In this document: piece after piece, positions 333 through 9,929 of the stretch
Position numbering within the stretch: the stretch's first letter is position 1
Layout: the number at the start of each line of letters is the position of its first letter
Source: Spirochaetia bacterium
GTDB taxonomy: Bacteria > Spirochaetota > Spirochaetia > DSM-2461
Assembly (NCBI GenBank): GCA_963668315.1
Contig: OY764216.1
Location: forward strand, 3,040,001 to 3,104,000
Reading direction: 5' to 3'
DNA length: 64,000 bases
Notes under the pieces: model-generated
The model's input: the letters and a program-made list of their open reading frames with translations, nothing else
Told to the model about the DNA's origin: nothing
Database searches by the model: none
Position numbers and translations under genes: made by a program

Positions 333-1496
333 TTATATTACGGGGTCGGGTACTTCATAGGTCCGCTGAAGGGGGGAGTAGAGGGAGCACCTGTCCATGA
401 CATCGTCGAATTCCTTGACAAGAATATTGATGAAGTAAACCGTGTTATCCACCATATTGACCTGGAAATAGTAGGGTAGCTGCCCATAGGAAAAGGAGAG
501 AGAACCGGAATAGGGAAACCATTCCTGTCCGCCCACGGGAATGTAATTATAGGAGTAATACATGACATTAACATCGGAGACGTCATTAAGAGCCACCGTG
601 GAATAGACAATCTTGTAGCGCAGATCCGATGAAGCGGCCCGGCTGTCCGAGGCCTCTGAAAAACTCAGGTTCAGTACAAAATCCTGGGCTACCGCGGGAA
701 TCCAGTCGGATCCCGTATCATCAACTGTTATGTCAGAGATTGCGGGAGCCGTGTAGTCGCAGAGAAAAGTATAAGGGGCGGAAGGCTGATTATAATATCC
801 GGACGTTCCGGCTTCGCAGCTTCCTCCGTTGAGAGATAAGAAGTATTCCCCTTCAGACAGTGATCCGCTGGGATCGATGGAGAAAATCCTGTCTTCCATA
901 CTTGGATATGTTATGGCGGCAAGTGGATAATTCGACGTGAAATCTTCGACAGTCAGTGTGGAATTGCTGATGAAATCGTTAAACTCCAGGGTTATGTAGG
1001 GAGTTGCAGTCTTGAAAATACGATAGGGTGATGTATTGATAGTATAGTCGGGAGAACCGTAAAAATGAGAGGTCAGCCCTCTGTTGAGATTGATCTCATA
1101 GGTCAGATCATAATAGGTATCTTCCGTTCCGGTATATCCGACAAAATCTTTGGTCAGAGTCATATTCTGAGAGGACTGCCAGTAGCGGTTGCTCAGGGTT
1201 ATATAATTGTAAAATGAAGTGCCCAGTCCCCGGTTGCTTACGGCGAAGGAGGCCGTATGGGGAGCGGTAAAATCCAGAGAGGGGGGGACGGTAAAGCTTA
1301 TTTTCTTATTGTCCCTGTCTATATTGCCGTAGGAATCTAAATAGAAAGCCGTATTATTGTAGCTCTCGAAGACAAAACTTTCGAAATCGAATACATATCC
1401 TGCTTCTTCCACCGGATCGTACCGGTTGAAAAAATCATCACAGGAAGCAAGAGCGACTAATAAGAATAATGAGGAAAACTTTTTAATTCTGTTCAT
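333..1496 (-). CDS. Hypothetical lipoprotein, Tyr/Ser/Thr-rich, probable Ig-like beta domains
   Basis: 387 aa ORF with lipobox-like LVALASC after a hydrophobic stretch. Composition is beta-rich, and the DYTAPAI linker is typical of Ig-like domain boundaries. Confidence 0.7.
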   Translation of the reverse strand: MNRIKKFSSLFLLVALASCDDFFNRYDPVEEAGYVFDFESFVFESYNNTAFYLDSYGNIDRDNKKISFTVPPSLDFTAPHTASFAVSNRGLGTSFYNYITLSNRYWQSSQNMTLTKDFVGYTGTEDTYYDLTYEINLNRGLTSHFYGSPDYTINTSPYRIFKTATPYITLEFNDFISNSTLTVEDFTSNYPLAAITYPSMEDRIFSIDPSGSLSEGEYFLSLNGGSCEAGTSGYYNQPSAPYTFLCDYTAPAISDITVDDTGSDWIPAVAQDFVLNLSFSEASDSRAASSDLRYKIVYSTVALNDVSDVNVMYYSYNYIPVGGQEWFPYSGSLSFSYGQLPYYFQVNMVDNTVYFINILVKEFDDVMDRCSLYSPLQRTYEVPDPVI

Positions 1497-1587: not shown

Positions 1588-2961
1588 CTAAAACCGATAC
1601 CCCAGGCGCAGTGATATCTGAGTAATATCCACCTGTCCGTCCTGTATGATCCAAGTATCGTTTCTCTGACTCACTTCCACGAGGAGTCTATCATAATTAA
1701 TGACAAGCCCTCCGCCCCAGGTGAGGAGGGTTCCGGCCGTGGATATCCGCTCTCCCTCCACATGCATACCCATCCAGCGGGACCCCATCTGTGCTTCGGC
1801 AAAAAGATTGACGGGAAAGGGAAACCTGGTCCTTCCGTAGAGGCCCATAGTAACGGTTGTAAAGAAGTCCCCCCTGTCGTTGGGGGCAAGGAAAGCAACG
1901 CGGCCGGTCCAGCCGAGGAAGTTAATAAGGGGGAGATCCTTGTTGATATCGGCCCGTAGAACCGCTTCTATCTCATTAAAAGGGGTTAGTATACCGGCTC
2001 CTTCGGCGAAAGTAAAATTGGTAACCGACTGGTCGAAAACGGCATCCGCAAGGGGAAGGCCGATGAGAAGGTCGGTTCCCCAACGCAAATTTTCGTAATA
2101 GTCTTCATCCCTGATCTTCTGCGGATCCACAATGGTAAATGCACCGGTCAGAACCATCTCTTCCAGGGGCGGATTGATCAGAACCAGGTCGTAGGATCCC
2201 GCCTTAAGCCCGACAAGATTGAACCAGAGAATTATCTCATCCTCGCTGATATATTCGCTGATTGGAAGACGGTGACGCTGACCGTCCCTTTCAAGAAAGG
2301 CTACGATATCTTTGTCAAAATTGGAGCCCTTGAGAATCACCCGGGGATTCTGGGTGTCAAGCAAAGCGGTGCGGGGTTCCAGCTCCGTCACTCGGGGGGA
2401 TACTTTTTCCTTAAGGGTAATGCAGCGTTCTTTCACCGTTTCGCTGCCCGAAGGATTTATAATACGCAGATCGTACTGACCAGCGGCTAGATGTTCCGTT
2501 TCCAGAACAATTTCTATTGTATTATTCCCCTTTTTCTCATAGGCAAGATTTTCCGCCTTACCGTCCCTTTCCAGTCGGATGAGGGCGCCTTCCATTATAT
2601 CAGAGGTATGAACCGTCACTCTTTGAGAGCGCTCGCCCGCAAAGATGGTATGGGGAGGGACGTCGATGATGACCGGCTCCAGATCTTTTAATACGGTCAG
2701 GGTAATCCAGTCTGTCACGGCATCGGTTTTTTCGAATTTGTTCAGAAAGCTGATCCGGTATTCATATTCTCCCGGGGAGAGGTCCAGATAGATAAGGGGA
2801 TCGCTTATTCTTCTTTCAAAGAGGAGCCGGTTATCCTTTTTCAGTTCCAGAAGGAAGGTATGGCCCGGCAGGTCTTCCCACTCCAGCTTGATCCCCTCCT
2901 GTCCCGGGAGAGGGAAAATGAACAGAAGGAATATAAAAGGAAAGATGATCTTTCTTGCCAT
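1588..2961 (-). CDS. Putative outer-membrane protein: Fn3-like + 2 IPT/TIG-like domains + C-terminal beta-barrel
   Basis: Signal peptide; LEW...LSPGEYEYRISFLNKFEK Fn3-like domain; two IPT-like repeats (GQYDLRIINPSG, GSYDLVLINPP). The amphipathic C-terminus ends LRLGYRF (beta-signal-like). Confidence 0.7.
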   Translation of the reverse strand: MARKIIFPFIFLLFIFPLPGQEGIKLEWEDLPGHTFLLELKKDNRLLFERRISDPLIYLDLSPGEYEYRISFLNKFEKTDAVTDWITLTVLKDLEPVIIDVPPHTIFAGERSQRVTVHTSDIMEGALIRLERDGKAENLAYEKKGNNTIEIVLETEHLAAGQYDLRIINPSGSETVKERCITLKEKVSPRVTELEPRTALLDTQNPRVILKGSNFDKDIVAFLERDGQRHRLPISEYISEDEIILWFNLVGLKAGSYDLVLINPPLEEMVLTGAFTIVDPQKIRDEDYYENLRWGTDLLIGLPLADAVFDQSVTNFTFAEGAGILTPFNEIEAVLRADINKDLPLINFLGWTGRVAFLAPNDRGDFFTTVTMGLYGRTRFPFPVNLFAEAQMGSRWMGMHVEGERISTAGTLLTWGGGLVINYDRLLVEVSQRNDTWIIQDGQVDITQISLRLGYRF

Positions 2962-4374
2962 CTATCCGTTCCATCCTAAGAGAAGATAGGGGGAAAAGGC
3001 GGTCATGGAGTGGGACTTGAAATGTGTCCAGTCTATGGAATAGCCCAGCTCATAGGTCATTTTTTTTCTGGTATATTGCAGCGCCGCTTCAATCCTGTTG
3101 GTAAAATCCAGAGAATTGACAACACGCCCCTTATTGAAAAAATAGAGGGAATAGGCCGATCCGAAACCGAGGGAGAGGAAGAGATTCACCGGGGTGCCCC
3201 AGTCGGAGAGATAAAAGAAGCTTCCGTCAAGGACTACTTGTGTCAGGGTAAGATAATCGGCAATGGCATCGCTGTACTGGGTATAATGGATCCCCGCGGC
3301 ATAACCCGATTGTCTAAGTAGGGGGAGAGTGTATATTCCGGAATTCTGGAATTTTCGTCTGCCATTCAGGGTGAACCCGAGAAACGAAGTCTTGAACAAT
3401 CGGTCGCTGTCCTTGTCCATGGGGGCGGACAGATGGTAGGCAAATCCGAAAAAGAGGGGAGAGGTTTCTCTTTTCATGCGGATCTGTTCCTCCTGGCTGA
3501 TGATTTTCTCTTCCAGGGCGAGATCTATTTCATTGGAAACCACACCGCCCTCGTTTTCAACGGAAATCCTGTATGTTCCCAGCGCCAGCTCCGACGGATC
3601 GAGGTAGAATGTTATTTCCTCCCCGTAAAAGGTCTCCATATTCTCATATCCGGCAGGGGAGGGCCCGTCTATGACAAGGCGGGCCCGGGAGGAGAAGTTT
3701 TCTCCCTTGATGAGAAATTTCCCGGGGCTGTCTCCCCTGTGGATGACGGAAGGAGAGATCGATTCTATGACAGGAAGACGGCGCTCCGTTATTTTTACGG
3801 CCCTTTCCTTGGCATATTCCTTATTGGAAGGATTGATAACAATCAGATCCCAGAGACCGATTTCATGAAGCATCTCTCCCTGAAAAACAACTTCAAGCTC
3901 CAGCCCTTCGCCAGAGGGGGCGCGGGATTCTTCATAGCCTCTTATTCTATCCTGACCTTTTACAAGGTAGAAACGGCACATTTCATCGAAATTTCTGCCC
4001 CTTATTTCCAGGGTGATGCTCTCTTCATCACTGTAGAAAAGATAAGGCGAGGACCCGTCTATGATGGGCTGGGGGTTGGGATAGACTTGGAGCGGGCTCC
4101 AGTCGCTGCGGGATGCCATTTTTTCGAATTTATTAAATACGGATATCCTGATGTTGTAGGTACCGGGATTCAGAAACAGAGGGAGGGAAGGTTCTTCCGT
4201 TCTGATGGAGTAGAGTATGACGCCACCCGCCTCTATCTCCACCAGATAATAACGGGCCCCCTCAACAGGGGCCCACTCCAGTAATTTCTCTTCCGCGGGA
4301 AACTCGGTGCTTTGCGCCGTAAGAACGAGGGAGGAGAAAAGGAAAAGCAGACAGACCGGTACTTTAGTCTGCAT
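2962..4374 (-). CDS. Putative outer-membrane protein, paralog of 1588..2961
   Basis: Signal peptide; LEW...LNPGTYNIRISVFNKFEK; IPT-like repeats (IRGRNF..GLWDLIVINPS, IKGENF..GTYRISVENEG); aromatic-rich beta-strand C-terminal region. Confidence 0.7.
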   Translation of the reverse strand: MQTKVPVCLLFLFSSLVLTAQSTEFPAEEKLLEWAPVEGARYYLVEIEAGGVILYSIRTEEPSLPLFLNPGTYNIRISVFNKFEKMASRSDWSPLQVYPNPQPIIDGSSPYLFYSDEESITLEIRGRNFDEMCRFYLVKGQDRIRGYEESRAPSGEGLELEVVFQGEMLHEIGLWDLIVINPSNKEYAKERAVKITERRLPVIESISPSVIHRGDSPGKFLIKGENFSSRARLVIDGPSPAGYENMETFYGEEITFYLDPSELALGTYRISVENEGGVVSNEIDLALEEKIISQEEQIRMKRETSPLFFGFAYHLSAPMDKDSDRLFKTSFLGFTLNGRRKFQNSGIYTLPLLRQSGYAAGIHYTQYSDAIADYLTLTQVVLDGSFFYLSDWGTPVNLFLSLGFGSAYSLYFFNKGRVVNSLDFTNRIEAALQYTRKKMTYELGYSIDWTHFKSHSMTAFSPYLLLGWNG

Positions 4375-7099
4375 ACTGTATTACCGGCGAAAGGATCACC
4401 GGAGCCTCTTCGATGGTATCCAGAGTGATGGAGAAAACGGTCCTTGTTTCGGGAGATGTCCGTACTATCCCGATATTTCCATAATCAATGACCGCTTTAA
4501 CGGTAAAGACGAACTGGCCCACGTCCAGTTTGGAAAGGTCCCTGAATACGAATTCTGTGCCGCGGTAATTATCCTGGAAAAAGATCCGGTTTCCCGACTG
4601 GTCATATAAAGAAAGGGTATATGTTGCTCCCTCTTCAACCTGTCCCCACCGGAATGTAAGGTCATCCTGATCGGACATATCGATTATCCCGTCCTCCGTG
4701 GGAGAGACCATCCTTACCGCATTCAGCGATGTAACCGGTTCAATGGTCATTTCCGACCTGCCCGCAGGGGACGTACGCCCGCGGCTGTCGATTCCGTTTA
4801 CTTCGATGACATAATCGTCCGGATAGAGATCGTCTATACGGTAGTAATTCTGCTTCGTTTCCCTCCTCATAAGCAGTGTCCCCGAATCCTTCTGTCTCAG
4901 GGTAAGGGAATAGTCGGGAAATCTGTAGGAGGAATCCCACCGGATCAACAGACCGTCCTGAAGAATTTCCAGCCGGTTTGCCGAGAACTGATCGGAAGGC
5001 GACGTGATCACTGGCGCCTGGTAATTGATGATCGAACCAATGGAAAAGGTGGACCGGGAAACAGCACTTGCCGCGGGAAACCCCTTTCCCTCGTCCTCCC
5101 TCAGGGATCTCAGCTCCATCCTGTAGTCTCCCTCCGATAGGAGGGACACATCAATGTCGTAGGATAGAATATCCGTGCCGGGGAGTGTAACCAGAGGGAC
5201 CGTTTCACCCTCTTTGAAAAGGGCTCCCTCATAGGCGATACTGTTAGCAATGTCACTCCATGATAATGTCAATTTTTCTTCTCCGATCACTTCAATAGTA
5301 CTGTCCGGACGGGGATATGTCAAATCGGGAGGCAGTAAGGGCTTTCTTACAGAGAAGGCTCTCCGTGTTCCCCCGAGAGCCACGCGGTCCTCTTCATCCA
5401 TGATATCGACCTGCCAGAGAAAATCGCCCTCTTCCCCGATATATTGGGTATTCTGAGGATGATCAAGGCGGCTGTTGGCAATAATTCTCTCGTTTCCATC
5501 GGTGATTTTCCAGAGTCTGAAACGGAAGTTCCCCCTCTCTGAAGAGTCCCATATAAAGGATATGTCCTCAGGGGAGAGGGTGATCGCTTCATCCGCTTCG
5601 GGGCTCAGAAGCTCAATGGTTTTGACCTTTTCCCTGTTTTGGAAGGTTCGTATTTCAGAGGAGTCAACCGGAACCGATCCATCGGTTAAGGGGATAATCC
5701 GCCAGTAATACGTTCCTTCCTCCAGCCCGCCTGCTGCGTCGTAATAATTCCTTGACGTATTTTCCCTGCGCAGAACCCCTTCCATGGAGGAATCAGCCGA
5801 GAGGATAAACTGATAAAGGGGAATCTCCGGGTCCCCTTTCCAGCTGAACCTGACACCCCTGGAAAAATCTTCGGGCGAAAGGGACGCCTCATTCTCGGGA
5901 GAAATCAGTTCGGGAGGCTGAAGCTCTTCCTGCCTGATGACCATAAGGATCCTGTCCTCCGTCGGGGAGGTTCTTCCGATGTTTTCAATTCCGTTGTACT
6001 GGGCCGTGACACGCCACCAGTAGGCACCTTCTGTCAGATCGTCGATTTTCATCTGGTTATACCGGGTTCTCCGGGATATGACAGGATTGGTCATATCCGA
6101 CATCAATCCCATTTCCAGTTCCCAGTATTCGGCATTTTCCGCTCCCTGCCATGAGAAGGTGGGGGAAGGAACCTGATCCCGGTAGGTTAATTCCGTTTCA
6201 TTCAGAGGAAGGAGTGCTTTCAGAGGAAGATTCTCCATAATTCTGATTTTACCGGTCGAGCTGAACCTGCTGTCCTCTTCTGTTCCGACACGCCAGAAGT
6301 AATCGCCCGGAAGAAGGTCGAGATTATACTCCTGTTCCTCAAGATCATCGGCCTGAAAAACGATCCTTTCAAAATCCGTGTCCAGTGCTATCCAGAGGGA
6401 TCGTGTTTCCGCCGGCTGAGGCTCAATCCAGGCGAAGCGCATCTTCTGGGTTTCTCCGAAAGTCACCCAGCTGCTGTTGTTGGGCGGAGTGGAGAGGATG
6501 AAGCTCATCCTGTCCACGCTGGTTTCCCCTTCCGGCGTCAGGCGGAACTGTTCGTTGGCCTCAATTTTCTCCTCACCCCGTGACACGTCGCCGGCGAGCA
6601 CTGACATATTGAAGATGCCCTTATCATCGGTTGAGAGGGTTATTTCCGAAGCGTTACCCAGTATGATGGGCTGGGGATTCTCCTCACGGAGATTAATAAG
6701 CCTAAGGGGTTCGCTTCTCTCCTCCGTCGAAAGGGCGCTGATGGTTCCGTCGAAATAAATGGTATTGTCCATGAGACTCAGAACAATGCGGGAGCTGTTC
6801 TCCAGCGAAATCTCCGTACCGTCAATAAGATTCATCATGATCGAGGAAAAGGCGTCGGAACTGATGGTATCCCCGTCAAAAAGATCATCCTGGTTATTGA
6901 GATTGTAGGTGTAATCGTCTCCGGAAATCTGTCTTTTGGGATAATAGGACAGATCGGAAACCGTGCCAATCGGTTCTCCGGCCCCCCGAATTTTCGATGA
7001 GATAATTTCCAGATACCGGGTTCCGGCGAAATAGAATACCGAGAGAAGGAGGGCGAGGGCAAGAAGATCTTTGAAAAGGGTTTTAATCCATAATCTCAT
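4364..7099 (-). CDS. Membrane-anchored FecR-like domain protein with seven Fn3/Ig-like repeats
   Basis: N-terminal TM helix and a FecR-like segment (LFDGDTISSDAFSSIMMNLIDGTEISLENSSRIVL). Seven repeats of L-x-x-P...F-x-W, most followed by G-x-Y-x-W-x-V or a variant. Confidence 0.75.
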   Translation of the reverse strand: MRLWIKTLFKDLLALALLLSVFYFAGTRYLEIISSKIRGAGEPIGTVSDLSYYPKRQISGDDYTYNLNNQDDLFDGDTISSDAFSSIMMNLIDGTEISLENSSRIVLSLMDNTIYFDGTISALSTEERSEPLRLINLREENPQPIILGNASEITLSTDDKGIFNMSVLAGDVSRGEEKIEANEQFRLTPEGETSVDRMSFILSTPPNNSSWVTFGETQKMRFAWIEPQPAETRSLWIALDTDFERIVFQADDLEEQEYNLDLLPGDYFWRVGTEEDSRFSSTGKIRIMENLPLKALLPLNETELTYRDQVPSPTFSWQGAENAEYWELEMGLMSDMTNPVISRRTRYNQMKIDDLTEGAYWWRVTAQYNGIENIGRTSPTEDRILMVIRQEELQPPELISPENEASLSPEDFSRGVRFSWKGDPEIPLYQFILSADSSMEGVLRRENTSRNYYDAAGGLEEGTYYWRIIPLTDGSVPVDSSEIRTFQNREKVKTIELLSPEADEAITLSPEDISFIWDSSERGNFRFRLWKITDGNERIIANSRLDHPQNTQYIGEEGDFLWQVDIMDEEDRVALGGTRRAFSVRKPLLPPDLTYPRPDSTIEVIGEEKLTLSWSDIANSIAYEGALFKEGETVPLVTLPGTDILSYDIDVSLLSEGDYRMELRSLREDEGKGFPAASAVSRSTFSIGSIINYQAPVITSPSDQFSANRLEILQDGLLIRWDSSYRFPDYSLTLRQKDSGTLLMRRETKQNYYRIDDLYPDDYVIEVNGIDSRGRTSPAGRSEMTIEPVTSLNAVRMVSPTEDGIIDMSDQDDLTFRWGQVEEGATYTLSLYDQSGNRIFFQDNYRGTEFVFRDLSKLDVGQFVFTVKAVIDYGNIGIVRTSPETRTVFSITLDTIEEAPVILSPVIQYAD

Positions 7100-9929
7100 A
7101 TTTTACTTCTTTCTCATCCACATCTTTCTTCAGAACGTCGCTGAAATCTCCTTCAATTCCCACATAGGAACGCATTTCATCCAGATCTTTCGGTCTGGCC
7201 GGATTATCCATCCGTCCGAGAACGGCGTAGATCTGCTGGGGTTCGCTCTTTCCCTTCACCTTGATCTTGTTCATGGGAACCACATCGTAGATGCCTTTCA
7301 CCTGATTATACGTGTCCGTGGATATGAGAATGTCCGTGCCCATAGGTTTGTTCAAAGGTTCGATACGGGAAGCCAGGTTTACCGCGTCGCCGATAACCGT
7401 ATATTCCATTCTGTCCTCCGAGCCTATCTGACCGGATACCACAGGGCCGGAATTGATGCCGCAGCCGATTTTGATAATGGGTTTTTTGTCTCCGCCCCGT
7501 CCTTTGTTGAACCTGATCAGGGCTTCCCTCATGGCAAGGGCGCAGTTGACGCAGTTTTCCGGATCATTCCCATGGGATTTGGGGACGCCCCACAGGCCCA
7601 TGATGGCATCACCGATATACTTGTCCACATGGCCCATGGTGTCGTTGACGCATTTGACCATTTCCGTCATATATTCATTCAGGAACTCCACCACTTCACC
7701 GGGCTCGAGCTTTTCCGAAATGGCTGTGAATGAGCGGATATCGGAGAAGAAAATCGTGGCTTCCTTTGTTTCTCCCCCCAGTTTCAGCTCTCCTTTCGCG
7801 GCCATCTCGGCCACTTCCTTGTTCACAAAGCGGCCGAAGGCGTCCTTCATTCTCTCCCGTTCCTGAAGACCGTGTCCCATGTCGATGAACGCCTGGGTCA
7901 GAACTCCCGTCTCATCCCGGTTGCGTACTTTCAGCTTCAGTTCGTACTGCCCGTTTTCAATCAGTTTCGTGGCTACCATGAGACGGGCGAGGGGGAGGGA
8001 GATCGTCTTGGAAAAGAAGTAGATGATGAGGATCGTCAGAGAAAGTATCATGATCATCAGGTAAAGATTCTGCCTGAGAATATCGTTGATGGGGCCGAAA
8101 ACGGCAGACCTTTTTATTTCGGAGACGAAAAAGAGGTCCCAGTCCTTGATTATGGTGAAAGCTCCCAGCATCTGCTCCCCCGGTTCCGGCTCTGTTTCCT
8201 CAGTACCGATTATCGTCTGCTGATAGCTTATCTGCTGGTTGGAAGTTGAGCCCGACTCTCTCACATAGGAGAGAATGGGATGGTTTTCATAATCCCCGGG
8301 AAGACAGGATGTCACGAGGGTCTTGTCCGGATGTCCGATCATCTCTCCCATACCGTTCAGAACGAAAATGGTCCTGCTGCCTGAGCTGTTGATGATATCG
8401 TTGAGAAGTTCCGCCGTCTGAACAATGATGATCAGGGGTTTCTGCCTGTTATCGCTCTCATCCCAGTAGGTCAGGATTACGCCCGTCACCGGTTCGGTAT
8501 TTCTCGTGTCCGTCAGAAAAAAGGAGGGGTTGAATGTCCTCCGGTAGTTCTGATCCCCCTGCCAGGCCTCTTCTGTCATGGACGCATAATTCTCCTCAAG
8601 AACACTGCTGATATAGTCCTTGCTGAAGTATCCCGGAGAGTTGTAGACCACATCGCTGGAAAGGAGTTCGAAGTAAAGAATATAGGGATAATCGTTTATC
8701 AGGGTATCTTCCAGATTCGCCCTGTTATTGTTGAGAAGGACTCTGAGTGTCTCCCGAAGGCTGTTGAAACTGTTTTTTGTATTGGTGGAGAGCAGGTCGG
8801 CGACGGTCAGGCTGTTCTGCTCTATCTCGCGGGAGAGGGTCTTCTCAAAGAGGGAGAAGGATATTACCGACATGGAGCTCATGGCCAGAACGATCACGGT
8901 GGAAATGATGAGTATAAGTTTGAAGCCGATGGAGAAGCGCACCCCCAGCTTTCGGCTTTTTGGCTTTTTCAGATCAAGTTCTTCGGGCAGTTCCTCGTCC
9001 TTGCTGTTCTGTTCGGTGAGTCTGTCGATTTTCTTAATCAGATCGGGAGGCATAATGGCCACCTCCCGGATTATTTCTTTTATCTCGACCTTCGCAGGGC
9101 CCTGGCTGACCGGCAAAGCCGCCGGTTCTTCCGGACGTCTGGACGGTTTCTTCAGAATCTTCAGAATGCTTCCCCTGATCTTCAGTTTCTCAAGAAGTCT
9201 GCTTCCTTCTTCTTGTCCGGAATAGAGAAAATACAAAGGCTGCCGGACCTGATCGTCCCGGACCGATTCGTAGGGAAGATCCAGGGGGCCCATAAGGGGA
9301 ATCTCACCCTTTGCCGTCAGGGAGGATAGACTGTCTATTGTCTGCAGAAGATCGTCCTGTCTGTTCAGATCAAGGTAGAAGAGTATGCGCCACTCATCAG
9401 GCCTTGCCTTCTCGAGATAATGGCGGGGAATACGCAGGGCGTGGGTGAAATCCTCATCCTTTCCGATGGAAAGGGTTTTGAGATCCCACTGAAGTTCCGT
9501 ATCAATCAGCCGCTTGTGGAAAAGCCTCGTCATGGCGGATATATCAAAATCGATCGACTCTCCGGTGAGAACGGACTCCCTGACATTGACGAAGAGTCCT
9601 TCGGCTTTTTTTTCTTCCAGCACCCGGAAGAGGCGGACGATATGTTCGATAAGGCGGTTGAGAAGGCGGTAATCTTCCGTTGAAATCGGGGAATTCCTCT
9701 CGGCCAGTTCCGAGGTGAAAGTGAGTCCCAGCTGCGCCATGGAGTTCAGGGGGGACAAGCCCATAAAAGTCCCCAGAAAAGAAAGAATGCGGAATTCCTC
9801 TTTCAGCGAAGCGATATCAGGTCTTTTGGCTGTTTTTAATTTTTTGTGTTCCATAAGAAGAGAACGTACATGGTGACCCGCTTCTCTCTTCAGGGATAAA
9901 GGTTGTTTGCTGCTCTTTTCTCTTTCCAC
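7083..9929 (-). CDS. Membrane-bound class III adenylate cyclase (TM-Cache-TM-HAMP-cyclase) with long cytoplasmic N-terminal extension
   Basis: Cyclase motifs FFSDIRSFT, VDKYIGDAIM and EYTVIGDAVNLASRIE; HAMP (PLARL..RDETGVLTQAF); two TM helices flanking a Cache-like region. Confidence 0.9.
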   Translation of the reverse strand: MEREKSSKQPLSLKREAGHHVRSLLMEHKKLKTAKRPDIASLKEEFRILSFLGTFMGLSPLNSMAQLGLTFTSELAERNSPISTEDYRLLNRLIEHIVRLFRVLEEKKAEGLFVNVRESVLTGESIDFDISAMTRLFHKRLIDTELQWDLKTLSIGKDEDFTHALRIPRHYLEKARPDEWRILFYLDLNRQDDLLQTIDSLSSLTAKGEIPLMGPLDLPYESVRDDQVRQPLYFLYSGQEEGSRLLEKLKIRGSILKILKKPSRRPEEPAALPVSQGPAKVEIKEIIREVAIMPPDLIKKIDRLTEQNSKDEELPEELDLKKPKSRKLGVRFSIGFKLILIISTVIVLAMSSMSVISFSLFEKTLSREIEQNSLTVADLLSTNTKNSFNSLRETLRVLLNNNRANLEDTLINDYPYILYFELLSSDVVYNSPGYFSKDYISSVLEENYASMTEEAWQGDQNYRRTFNPSFFLTDTRNTEPVTGVILTYWDESDNRQKPLIIIVQTAELLNDIINSSGSRTIFVLNGMGEMIGHPDKTLVTSCLPGDYENHPILSYVRESGSTSNQQISYQQTIIGTEETEPEPGEQMLGAFTIIKDWDLFFVSEIKRSAVFGPINDILRQNLYLMIMILSLTILIIYFFSKTISLPLARLMVATKLIENGQYELKLKVRNRDETGVLTQAFIDMGHGLQERERMKDAFGRFVNKEVAEMAAKGELKLGGETKEATIFFSDIRSFTAISEKLEPGEVVEFLNEYMTEMVKCVNDTMGHVDKYIGDAIMGLWGVPKSHGNDPENCVNCALAMREALIRFNKGRGGDKKPIIKIGCGINSGPVVSGQIGSEDRMEYTVIGDAVNLASRIEPLNKPMGTDILISTDTYNQVKGIYDVVPMNKIKVKGKSEPQQIYAVLGRMDNPARPKDLDEMRSYVGIEGDFSDVLKKDVDEKEVKYEIMD

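Follow-up and report, generated by a model that had tools for sequence, protein, structure and literature searches.

A predicted envelope-spanning cyclase-rod-barrel system in a conserved spirochaete gene cluster

The DNA stretch analysed here (the window: 64,000 nucleotides of contig OY764216.1, positions 3,040,001 to 3,104,000, from a Spirochaetia bacterium) belongs to a host genome of one contig of 5.62 Mb, and the homologues of the window carry the label Spirochaetales. Near its start lie genes for a membrane-bound class III nucleotide cyclase, a FecR-type protein with tandem repeats (rod) and two outer-membrane barrel proteins (OMP1 and OMP2). An earlier note had placed four co-oriented open reading frames (ORFs) with overlapping or abutting ends here, and all of them were located at the stated positions, on the minus strand: the cyclase and rod genes overlap by 17 nt, the rod and OMP1 genes by 11 nt, and OMP1 and OMP2 adjoin with a gap of zero. 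The four-gene set is present as a single copy in the host genome. We found the cyclase-rod-barrel system to be real and widespread; a bridge between the two membranes is predicted by modelling, and its role in signalling is one that we infer. The genes, with a lipoprotein-like neighbour, are:

7083-9929, minus strand: cyclase gene, 948 amino acids (aa), GTG start
4364-7099, minus strand: rod gene, 911 aa, homologue of TP_0484
2962-4374, minus strand: OMP1 gene, 470 aa, homologue of Tp0483 and the LIC11435 family
1588-2961, minus strand: OMP2 gene, 457 aa, paralogue of OMP1
333-1496, minus strand: lipoprotein-like gene, 387 aa, 91 bp downstream of OMP2

Domain architecture of the encoded proteins

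From the N- to the C-terminus, the cyclase consists of a CheA-P1-like bundle, an alpha/beta domain, a first transmembrane helix (TM1), a dCache domain, a second helix (TM2), a HAMP domain and the catalytic domain:

9501-9911, minus strand: CheA-P1/HPt-like helical bundle (aa 7-143)
9150-9425, minus strand: small beta-alpha-beta-beta-alpha-beta domain, from secondary structure (aa 169-260)
8862-8918, minus strand: TM1 (aa 338-356)
8088-8840, minus strand: periplasmic dCache domain between TM1 and TM2 (aa 364-614)
8010-8066, minus strand: TM2 (aa 622-640)
7860-8018, minus strand: HAMP domain (aa 638-690), passing the Pfam cut-off
7203-7781, minus strand: class III catalytic domain (Guanylate_cyc, aa 721-901), passing the Pfam cut-off

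The catalytic domain scored 93.7 bits against PF00211 (cut-off 21.9). Residues D730, K770, D774, T844, N851 and R855 are all present, which we take to be the two metal-binding aspartates (D730/D774), the Lys/Thr adenine pair (K770/T844) and the Asn/Arg transition-state pair (N851/R855). Judged by its sequence, the protein is a member of the class III adenylate cyclase family with intact catalytic residues. Its structural model (predicted local distance difference test, pLDDT, 73; 20 alignment rows) matched CyaB (3r5g) at Z 26.5. Pfam did not detect a Cache domain in the window cyclase itself; dCache_1 was matched at E<=1 by 16 of the 20 aligned family members (best 4.7e-6), and aa 364-616 of the model matched dCache sensors, including the Tlp1 dCache domain (Z 14.8, root-mean-square deviation (rmsd) 4.2 over 228). 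The inner-membrane Cache-HAMP cyclase of the earlier note is thus borne out by the Pfam HAMP and class III domains, the two TM helices and the dCache fold of the model. The enzyme is 38% identical to the Treponema pallidum cyclase O83498 over 636 columns and shares a clade with it (support 0.93).

About 265 cytoplasmic residues precede TM1, a region overlooked in the earlier note. Compared with four CheA P1 structures and a P1-CheY/P2 complex, the helical bundle reached Z 13.2-15.0, the best matches being 3kyj_A (Z 15.0, rmsd 2.9 over 120), 1i5n (Z 14.8) and 1tqg (Z 13.8); the margin is thin, since designed helical repeats score Z 13.8-14.3. Atlas neighbours of the module were CheA/Hpt, under 0.9. 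The phospho-His position is occupied by Ser in the window cyclase and by His in 17 of 23 members, none of them in this genus. In the P2 position follows the alpha/beta domain, with P2-like order and secondary structure and a colinear profile match that was non-significant (probability 0.5-4%). A sequence search of the PDB gave no match, and neither did a P2 family search at this gene; the domain is possibly CheA-P2-like. The CheA-like module is restricted to the main cluster of the window cyclase's family, while cyclases of other lineages bear different extensions, for example GGDEF in locus L190. The CheA-P1-like, His-less module on this cyclase is a feature new here. A second, short CheA-like protein is encoded in the host genome (L204, G000:C1:2576715-2579942), and this protein and its relative L208 were among the best, yet weak, matches to the N-terminal module.

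Further observations concern the cyclase family as a whole. Ten members (L043, L044, L045, L046, L047, L048, L051, L052, L059 and L061) have E-W-A-H-M in place of E-Y-T-V-I in the base-specificity strand, and their substrate may differ from ATP. A conserved motif at the cyclase end was set aside as a functional element: an ATG falls within the codons concerned in 42 of the 74 ends that carry the motif, and no function was assigned because the gene overlap may partly explain the conservation. In this genus, both the FecR domain (6509-6991) and the dCache domain (8088-8840) depart from residues that are >80% conserved in the family, possibly by co-divergence or misalignment.

The rod is composed of:

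7010-7078, minus strand: single N-terminal TM helix
6509-6991, minus strand: FecR-type domain directly outside the TM helix (aa 37-197), family profile E 2.7e-41
4415-6496, minus strand: seven tandem Fn3-like units (aa 202-895)
4367-4411, minus strand: C-terminal tail of 15 residues (aa 897-911), predicted donor strand A/A'

With Pfam, FecR remained below detection in the window rod itself; PF04773 was found in 9 of 18 aligned homologues and in TP_0484 (E 1e-12). A unit profile built from the rod family itself gave seven matches (E 1e-13 to 5e-24). The N-terminal TM helix, the FecR assignment by family profile and homologues, and the seven units agree with the previously proposed TM-anchored FecR-like protein with seven Fn3 repeats. 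Fewer than 10 residues lie ahead of the TM helix, so that the rod is without a cytoplasmic anti-sigma domain.

OMP1 comprises:

4072-4287, minus strand: Fn3 domain without strand A, preceded by a signal peptide
3505-4071, minus strand: two IPT domains
2965-3462, minus strand: 8-stranded barrel

Pfam and NCBIfam alone identified no barrel in the window proteins, nor did they recognise the Cache and FecR domains, and the Foldseek lists were dominated by cyclase or Ig matches. The OMP1 model (pLDDT 91.9, 53 rows) showed a six-stranded Fn3 domain, two IPT domains and, at the C-terminus, where the earlier note had named a beta-barrel as a check, an 8-stranded barrel. This barrel matched a Dot/Icm porin (Z 18.6), NspA (18.4), the OprF N-domain (17.1), OmpA (16.9) and also OmpW, and the OMP1 family profile finds Ail and OmpX. 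OMP2 is 24% identical to OMP1 (E 2e-24), matches the same three family profiles and shares its W and N-K-F motifs. The two thus appear as paralogous Fn3-IPT-IPT-barrel proteins, as had been claimed, OMP1 by its model and OMP2 by identity and shared profile matches. Against the NCBIfam LIC11435 family (NF047756, curated cut-off 380) they scored 83.6 and 69.1 bits; at the sequence level they are related to this family and are not members of it.

Distribution and gene neighbourhood

A single-protein search found the rod in 27 of 61 relatives, and its profile matched 234 of 401 sampled Spirochaetota genomes. Among families, all 104 genomes of f43 and 55 of the 74 of f26 were matched, and none of those of f28 (0/31) and f46 (0/32). 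As one genome of 1.1 Mb is among the matches, a reduced pathogen has kept the set.

Co-occurrence of the genes across genomes, a check named in the earlier note, was surveyed at 114 rod loci and at control cyclases. The cyclase adjoins the rod in 109 of the 110 loci with upstream room, and an Fn3-barrel gene lies next to the rod in 94 of the 107 with downstream room (by profile); L078, a duplicate of L048, was excluded, and the adjacency counts cover only loci with enough flanking sequence. When 40 loci were chosen by the rod alone, all 40 held the cyclase and 38 by profile, or 39 by eye, the barrel gene. As a control, 80 cyclase loci from named genomes were chosen by catalytic motifs only. 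A FecR/rod gene was near 24 of the 28 dCache-type cyclases and 0 of the 52 others (48 of these with at least 1 kb downstream), and three of the four rod-less dCache cyclases stop at a contig end. These neighbourhood counts are descriptions rather than significance tests, because the genomes are kin and members of this family served to build the profiles for dCache and FecR. With regard to the four-gene set claimed originally, the cyclase, the rod and one barrel gene proved widespread, whereas the second barrel gene is lineage-specific and outside the core: two Fn3-barrel genes occur in 14 loci (L067 and L070 removed as likely split ORFs), and a bare barrel is the second gene in one genus.

The constant part of the rod is its FecR end. 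Among the 107 loci with room, rods mostly have 7 (48), 5 (25) or 6 (13) repeats. Variant rods end in LysM (L084, 11870-13838, followed by a bare barrel-like gene) or a PQQ propeller (L063, L161), hold 14 repeats (L086) or consist of FecR without repeats (L146). While the FecR end is retained, the far end thus varies from LysM (L084) and PQQ propeller (L161) to nothing (L146); these three variants lack an Fn3-barrel gene, and the LysM- and PQQ-ended rods also lack the tail. Repeat-less FecR proteins still flank the cyclase in L146 and L074. Phylogenetically, 67 rod-associated cyclases and one contig-end locus form a spirochaete clade (support 0.99). A single clade of all rod-associated cyclases was ruled out, as the one of L160 and two Bdellovibrio-type cyclases fall apart from it. 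Locus L160 has kept the family dCache domain (E 3.5e-52), rod and barrel, and the catalytic domain of its cyclase lies outside the spirochaete clade. The rod thus follows the sensor domain and not the catalytic one. In L160 (4317-6971) and L196 (5803-8460), the family dCache is fused to a class III catalytic domain of another type. Outside the spirochaetes, Bdellovibrio bacteriovorus (L090) holds all three genes in a different order.

The resemblance to T. pallidum TP0483-TP0485, suggested in the earlier note, was found to be homology: TP0485-TP0484-Tp0483 share gene order, tail and strand-deficient Fn3 domain with the window set. The names come from genome G125 (adenylate cyclase O83498, TP_0484, Tp0483); G137 lists a cyclase, a FecR family and a LIC11435 family protein, and G070 holds a Treponema denticola FecR protein. 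The T. pallidum set has four repeats, one barrel gene and no N-terminal CheA-like module, compared with seven repeats, two barrel genes and the module in the window. The Leptospira cyclase-FecR-LIC11435 family loci are likewise homologous and in the same order, with five repeats and without the CheA-like module. In the accessible text of the literature, the T. pallidum and Leptospira proteins are each described on their own, as adhesins, antigens or mimics, and never as a system; no description of the cyclase-rod-barrel set was found in the literature searched, which included few subscription papers and no supplements.

Downstream of the set, the lipoprotein-like gene (333-1496) is kept only within this genus, and its membership is uncertain. 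A promoter-like site (consensus match only) lies inside the 91-bp gap that separates it from OMP2; promoter and terminator scans yielded no clear operon promoter. Genes of this lipoprotein-like kind were found beside the cluster in 28 of 47 loci; beside control cyclases the figure was 7 of 43, and the host genome would lead one to expect about 11%. The count used a crude lipobox rule, and the loci (the L031-L162 clusters) are kin and not independent. Some of these flanking proteins reach 1000-2000 aa. Close downstream of the cluster, about 2.8 kb outside the window start, lies a gene for a cyclic nucleotide (cNMP)-binding protein (G000:C1:3037244), whose syntenic counterpart in L031 (995-2170) is a cNMP-binding histidine kinase and candidate receiver of cyclic AMP (cAMP). 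The host genome holds 15 cNMP-binding matches, possible cAMP receivers, and, elsewhere, two more clear class III cyclases and one weak match. The remainder of the window, 10129-61112, holds mostly housekeeping genes (alaS, a TPR protein, a LysM amidase, nusA, infB, truB, pnp, lptF/G, murJ and citrate synthase), and four large window ORFs (19164, 25939, 27786 and 42071) had no Pfam match at 1e-10.

A predicted strand latch between rod and barrel protein

The Fn3 domain of the barrel proteins is without its first strand, a feature overlooked in the earlier note. Rod repeats open with a Pro-x-Leu-x-x-Pro strand, and the barrel-protein Fn3 domain begins one strand later. Accordingly, the median profile start was position 2 in 621 rod units versus about 21 in 87 barrel-protein Fn3 domains, and the motif was found upstream of the latter in 1 of 86 cases. 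A motif of similar kind is present in the rod tail. Co-folding of rod 791-911 with OMP1 23-200, using our own alignments from 85 rod-barrel pairs, gave interface scores (ipSAE) of 0.73, 0.71 and 0.73; of the 3 controls, the best scored 0.00. The mark for a pass is reached by 116 of 157 solved pairs and 2 of 215 mismatched pairs. The runs agreed on at least 91% of contacts, with a partner pLDDT of at least 90. In the predicted complex, rod 901-904 pair with OMP1 33-35 and rod 907-909 with OMP1 96-98, and OMP1 F83 inserts at rod 855-860 in the last repeat. The interface is conserved at W34 (86/86), N81 (73), F/L83 (79), rod L858 (80) and rod Y909 (71). The rod tail (901-909) is thus predicted to complete the strand-deficient Fn3 domain as a latch, which the co-fold supports but does not show. 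The missing first strand of the barrel-protein Fn3 domain and its predicted supply by the rod tail are features new here.

A comparable principle is donor-strand complementation in chaperone-usher pili, whose subunits have an Ig-type fold missing one strand that is completed by a partner's terminal peptide. The latch of the window set would differ in its Fn3 fold, in strand A being supplied by a C-terminal tail, and in forming one joint between membrane-anchored proteins and no polymer.

Proposed signalling role and alternative explanations

With moderate confidence, we propose that the operon of four genes builds an envelope-spanning device in which the barrel-latched rod controls the cyclase, and cAMP, via the FecR domain. 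Its parts are a dCache-HAMP cyclase in the inner membrane, a TM-FecR-(Fn3)7 rod, and Fn3-IPT-IPT-barrel proteins without Fn3 strand A. Rod 901-909 would complete the OMP1 Fn3 domain as strands A/A', with F83 packed into the last repeat; tail latch and packing would join up an unbroken connection from the inner to the outer membrane, about ten Ig-type modules long. The FecR domain may sit on the dCache domain, such that load, displacement or a ligand at the outer loops of the barrel would shift FecR, and HAMP would relay this to the catalytic dimer. OMP1 and OMP2 could be alternative outer ends of one rod. More tentatively, the CheA-P1-like module might allow a CheY-type receiver to dock on the cytoplasmic side. 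The link between FecR and cyclase is suggested by gene adjacency, by the repeat-less FecR proteins beside the cyclase (L146, L074) and by L160. The device as a whole is further supported by the co-occurrence counts with their cyclase control, by the missing Fn3 strand and the co-fold, by the fibronectin-binding regions of Tp0483 that map to predicted outer loops, and by the precedent of NsrA with CyaK. A far-reaching version, which we regard as tentative and rather doubtful, is a phylum-wide touch sensor of spirochaetes (and Bdellovibrio): a latched adhesin barrel would pull via the Ig rod on the dCache cyclase and convert attachment into cAMP, with Tp0483 as receptor and TP0485 as output, and, in the lineage of the window, a captured P1-P2 module of CheA would make the enzyme adjustable by chemotaxis receivers.

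Known systems offer partial parallels. In Sinorhizobium meliloti, the outer-membrane barrel protein NsrA is required for signalling to the inner-membrane class III cyclases CyaK, CyaD1 and CyaD2, according to the available portions of the reports (PMC7529298, PMC13001267), and the window set has the same pairing of outer-membrane barrel and inner-membrane class III cyclase. By analogy, it likely works like NsrA-CyaK without being a member of that system, as its sensor is dCache whereas the accessible text describes CHASE2 in the NsrA-CyaK cyclases. The barrel part of NsrA spans residues 600-1200 compared with about 165 residues in OMP1, and neither rod nor strand latch appears in the portions of the NsrA account available. 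In Campylobacterota, a FecR domain is grouped with a membrane adenylate cyclase, and a shared pathway has been proposed; as far as the accessible text goes, this cluster has a CHASE2 cyclase, FecR inside an outer-membrane protein, and TPR and phosphodiesterase genes (PMC9239204). In the window set, FecR is inner-membrane-anchored on a rod, and the locus has no TPR or phosphodiesterase gene. With FecA-FecR-FecI the set shares an inner-membrane TM protein, a periplasmic FecR domain and a link to an outer-membrane protein; it differs in having no anti-sigma N-domain, a cyclase output and a repeat-rod link. FecA is a TonB-dependent 22-strand receptor with a plug, whereas the window barrel has 8 strands. 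No ECF (extracytoplasmic function) sigma gene is adjacent at the window locus, which is flanked by alanyl-tRNA synthetase and the lipoprotein-like gene (flanks of relatives were not scanned for sigma factors). The absence of ECF sigma and TonB receptor claimed earlier therefore holds, and the set, lacking these and the anti-sigma domain, is not a FecA-FecR-FecI system. The column that we take as equivalent to the Gly-Thr self-cleavage motif of FecR is variable; the window rod has an invariant G118, with T119 after it, at a different place.

Several points weigh against the proposed device. Domains of the dCache type usually bind small ligands directly. The genomes in the counts are kin, L085 has a dCache cyclase with full flanks and no rod, and five normal-tailed rods have no adjoining Fn3-barrel gene (L075, L088, L148, L149, L191). 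The tail is only weakly strand-A-like (11% of 94 tails exceed the 95th percentile of shuffles), and the co-fold pass may arise because the pair resembles a complete Fn3 fold of whatever kind, the way two halves of a split domain would. One group found no outer-membrane evidence for Tp0483, according to the accessible part of a review (PMC10118025). LIC11436, probably the rod judging from its locus number, is listed in the available text as a fibronectin binder that makes a saprophyte adhere more strongly (PMC11350617), a finding more in line with a surface location.

Rod and barrel could instead be a structural tether or spacer between the membranes, the cyclase being co-expressed, perhaps held, and switched by its own dCache ligand. 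The predicted latch suits a tether equally well, the repeat number is typical of the lineage (7, 5, 4), a LysM-ended rod variant exists and the dCache fold is complete. Yet a tether has no need of the FecR domain, which is the constant part; a repeat-less FecR protein still stands beside the cyclase (L146, L074), and the rod stayed with dCache when the catalytic domain was swapped. We consider this explanation unlikely. Rather less probable in our judgement is that the latch itself is the signal, an unlatched tail (barrel missing, uninserted, or the membrane pulled off) switching the cyclase, so that outer-membrane assembly or damage would be reported and nothing outside sensed. A strand-deficient Fn3 domain would make latching a natural on/off state, 8-stranded barrels are without plug or obvious gated channel, and the coupled, overlapping genes suggest a fixed stoichiometry. 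The barrel genes, however, are duplicated and diverged (24% identity, 14 loci), with bare second barrels in one genus, and ligand-binding peptides of Tp0483 map to outer loops; together, these observations point to outside ligands. In the accessible text, Tp0483 regions 274-289 and 316-333 are reported to bind fibronectin (PMC5421087, PMC10118025). In the alignment with OMP1 they fall on residues 370-385 and 417-434, and both stretches start within a loop predicted to face outwards, a correspondence that is new here; the register is approximate because identity is 17%. TP0483 is also listed, in the part of the source available, among recombining loci (PMC6685089).

Finally, it is quite improbable that the rod is exported as a surface Ig-repeat adhesin held by the barrel protein, with the cyclase a mere genetic neighbour. 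By eye, the N-terminal helix of the rod resembles an uncleaved anchor, and the adjacency to the cyclase (109/110) would be left unexplained. Domains ahead of strand 1 in an 8-stranded barrel lie in the periplasm; since the Fn3 domain precedes strand 1, the predicted latch would be periplasmic, which also counts against an exported rod. In its favour, the available excerpts report LIC11436 and Tp0483 as fibronectin binders and describe TP0484 as modelled on a host Fn3 protein and interpreted as mimicry (PMC5956850).

The envelope-spanning device thus remains the reading that we favour: because the rod tail is predicted to latch into the barrel protein, the four genes likely connect the cell surface with cAMP. 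If true, spirochaete cAMP signalling would have a candidate input. Tp0483 would gain a fold, a topology and a partner; according to the accessible part of a review (PMC10118025), 'little is known' of its structure. Reported adhesins would be recast as sensor parts, and a new way to bridge two membranes would be added.

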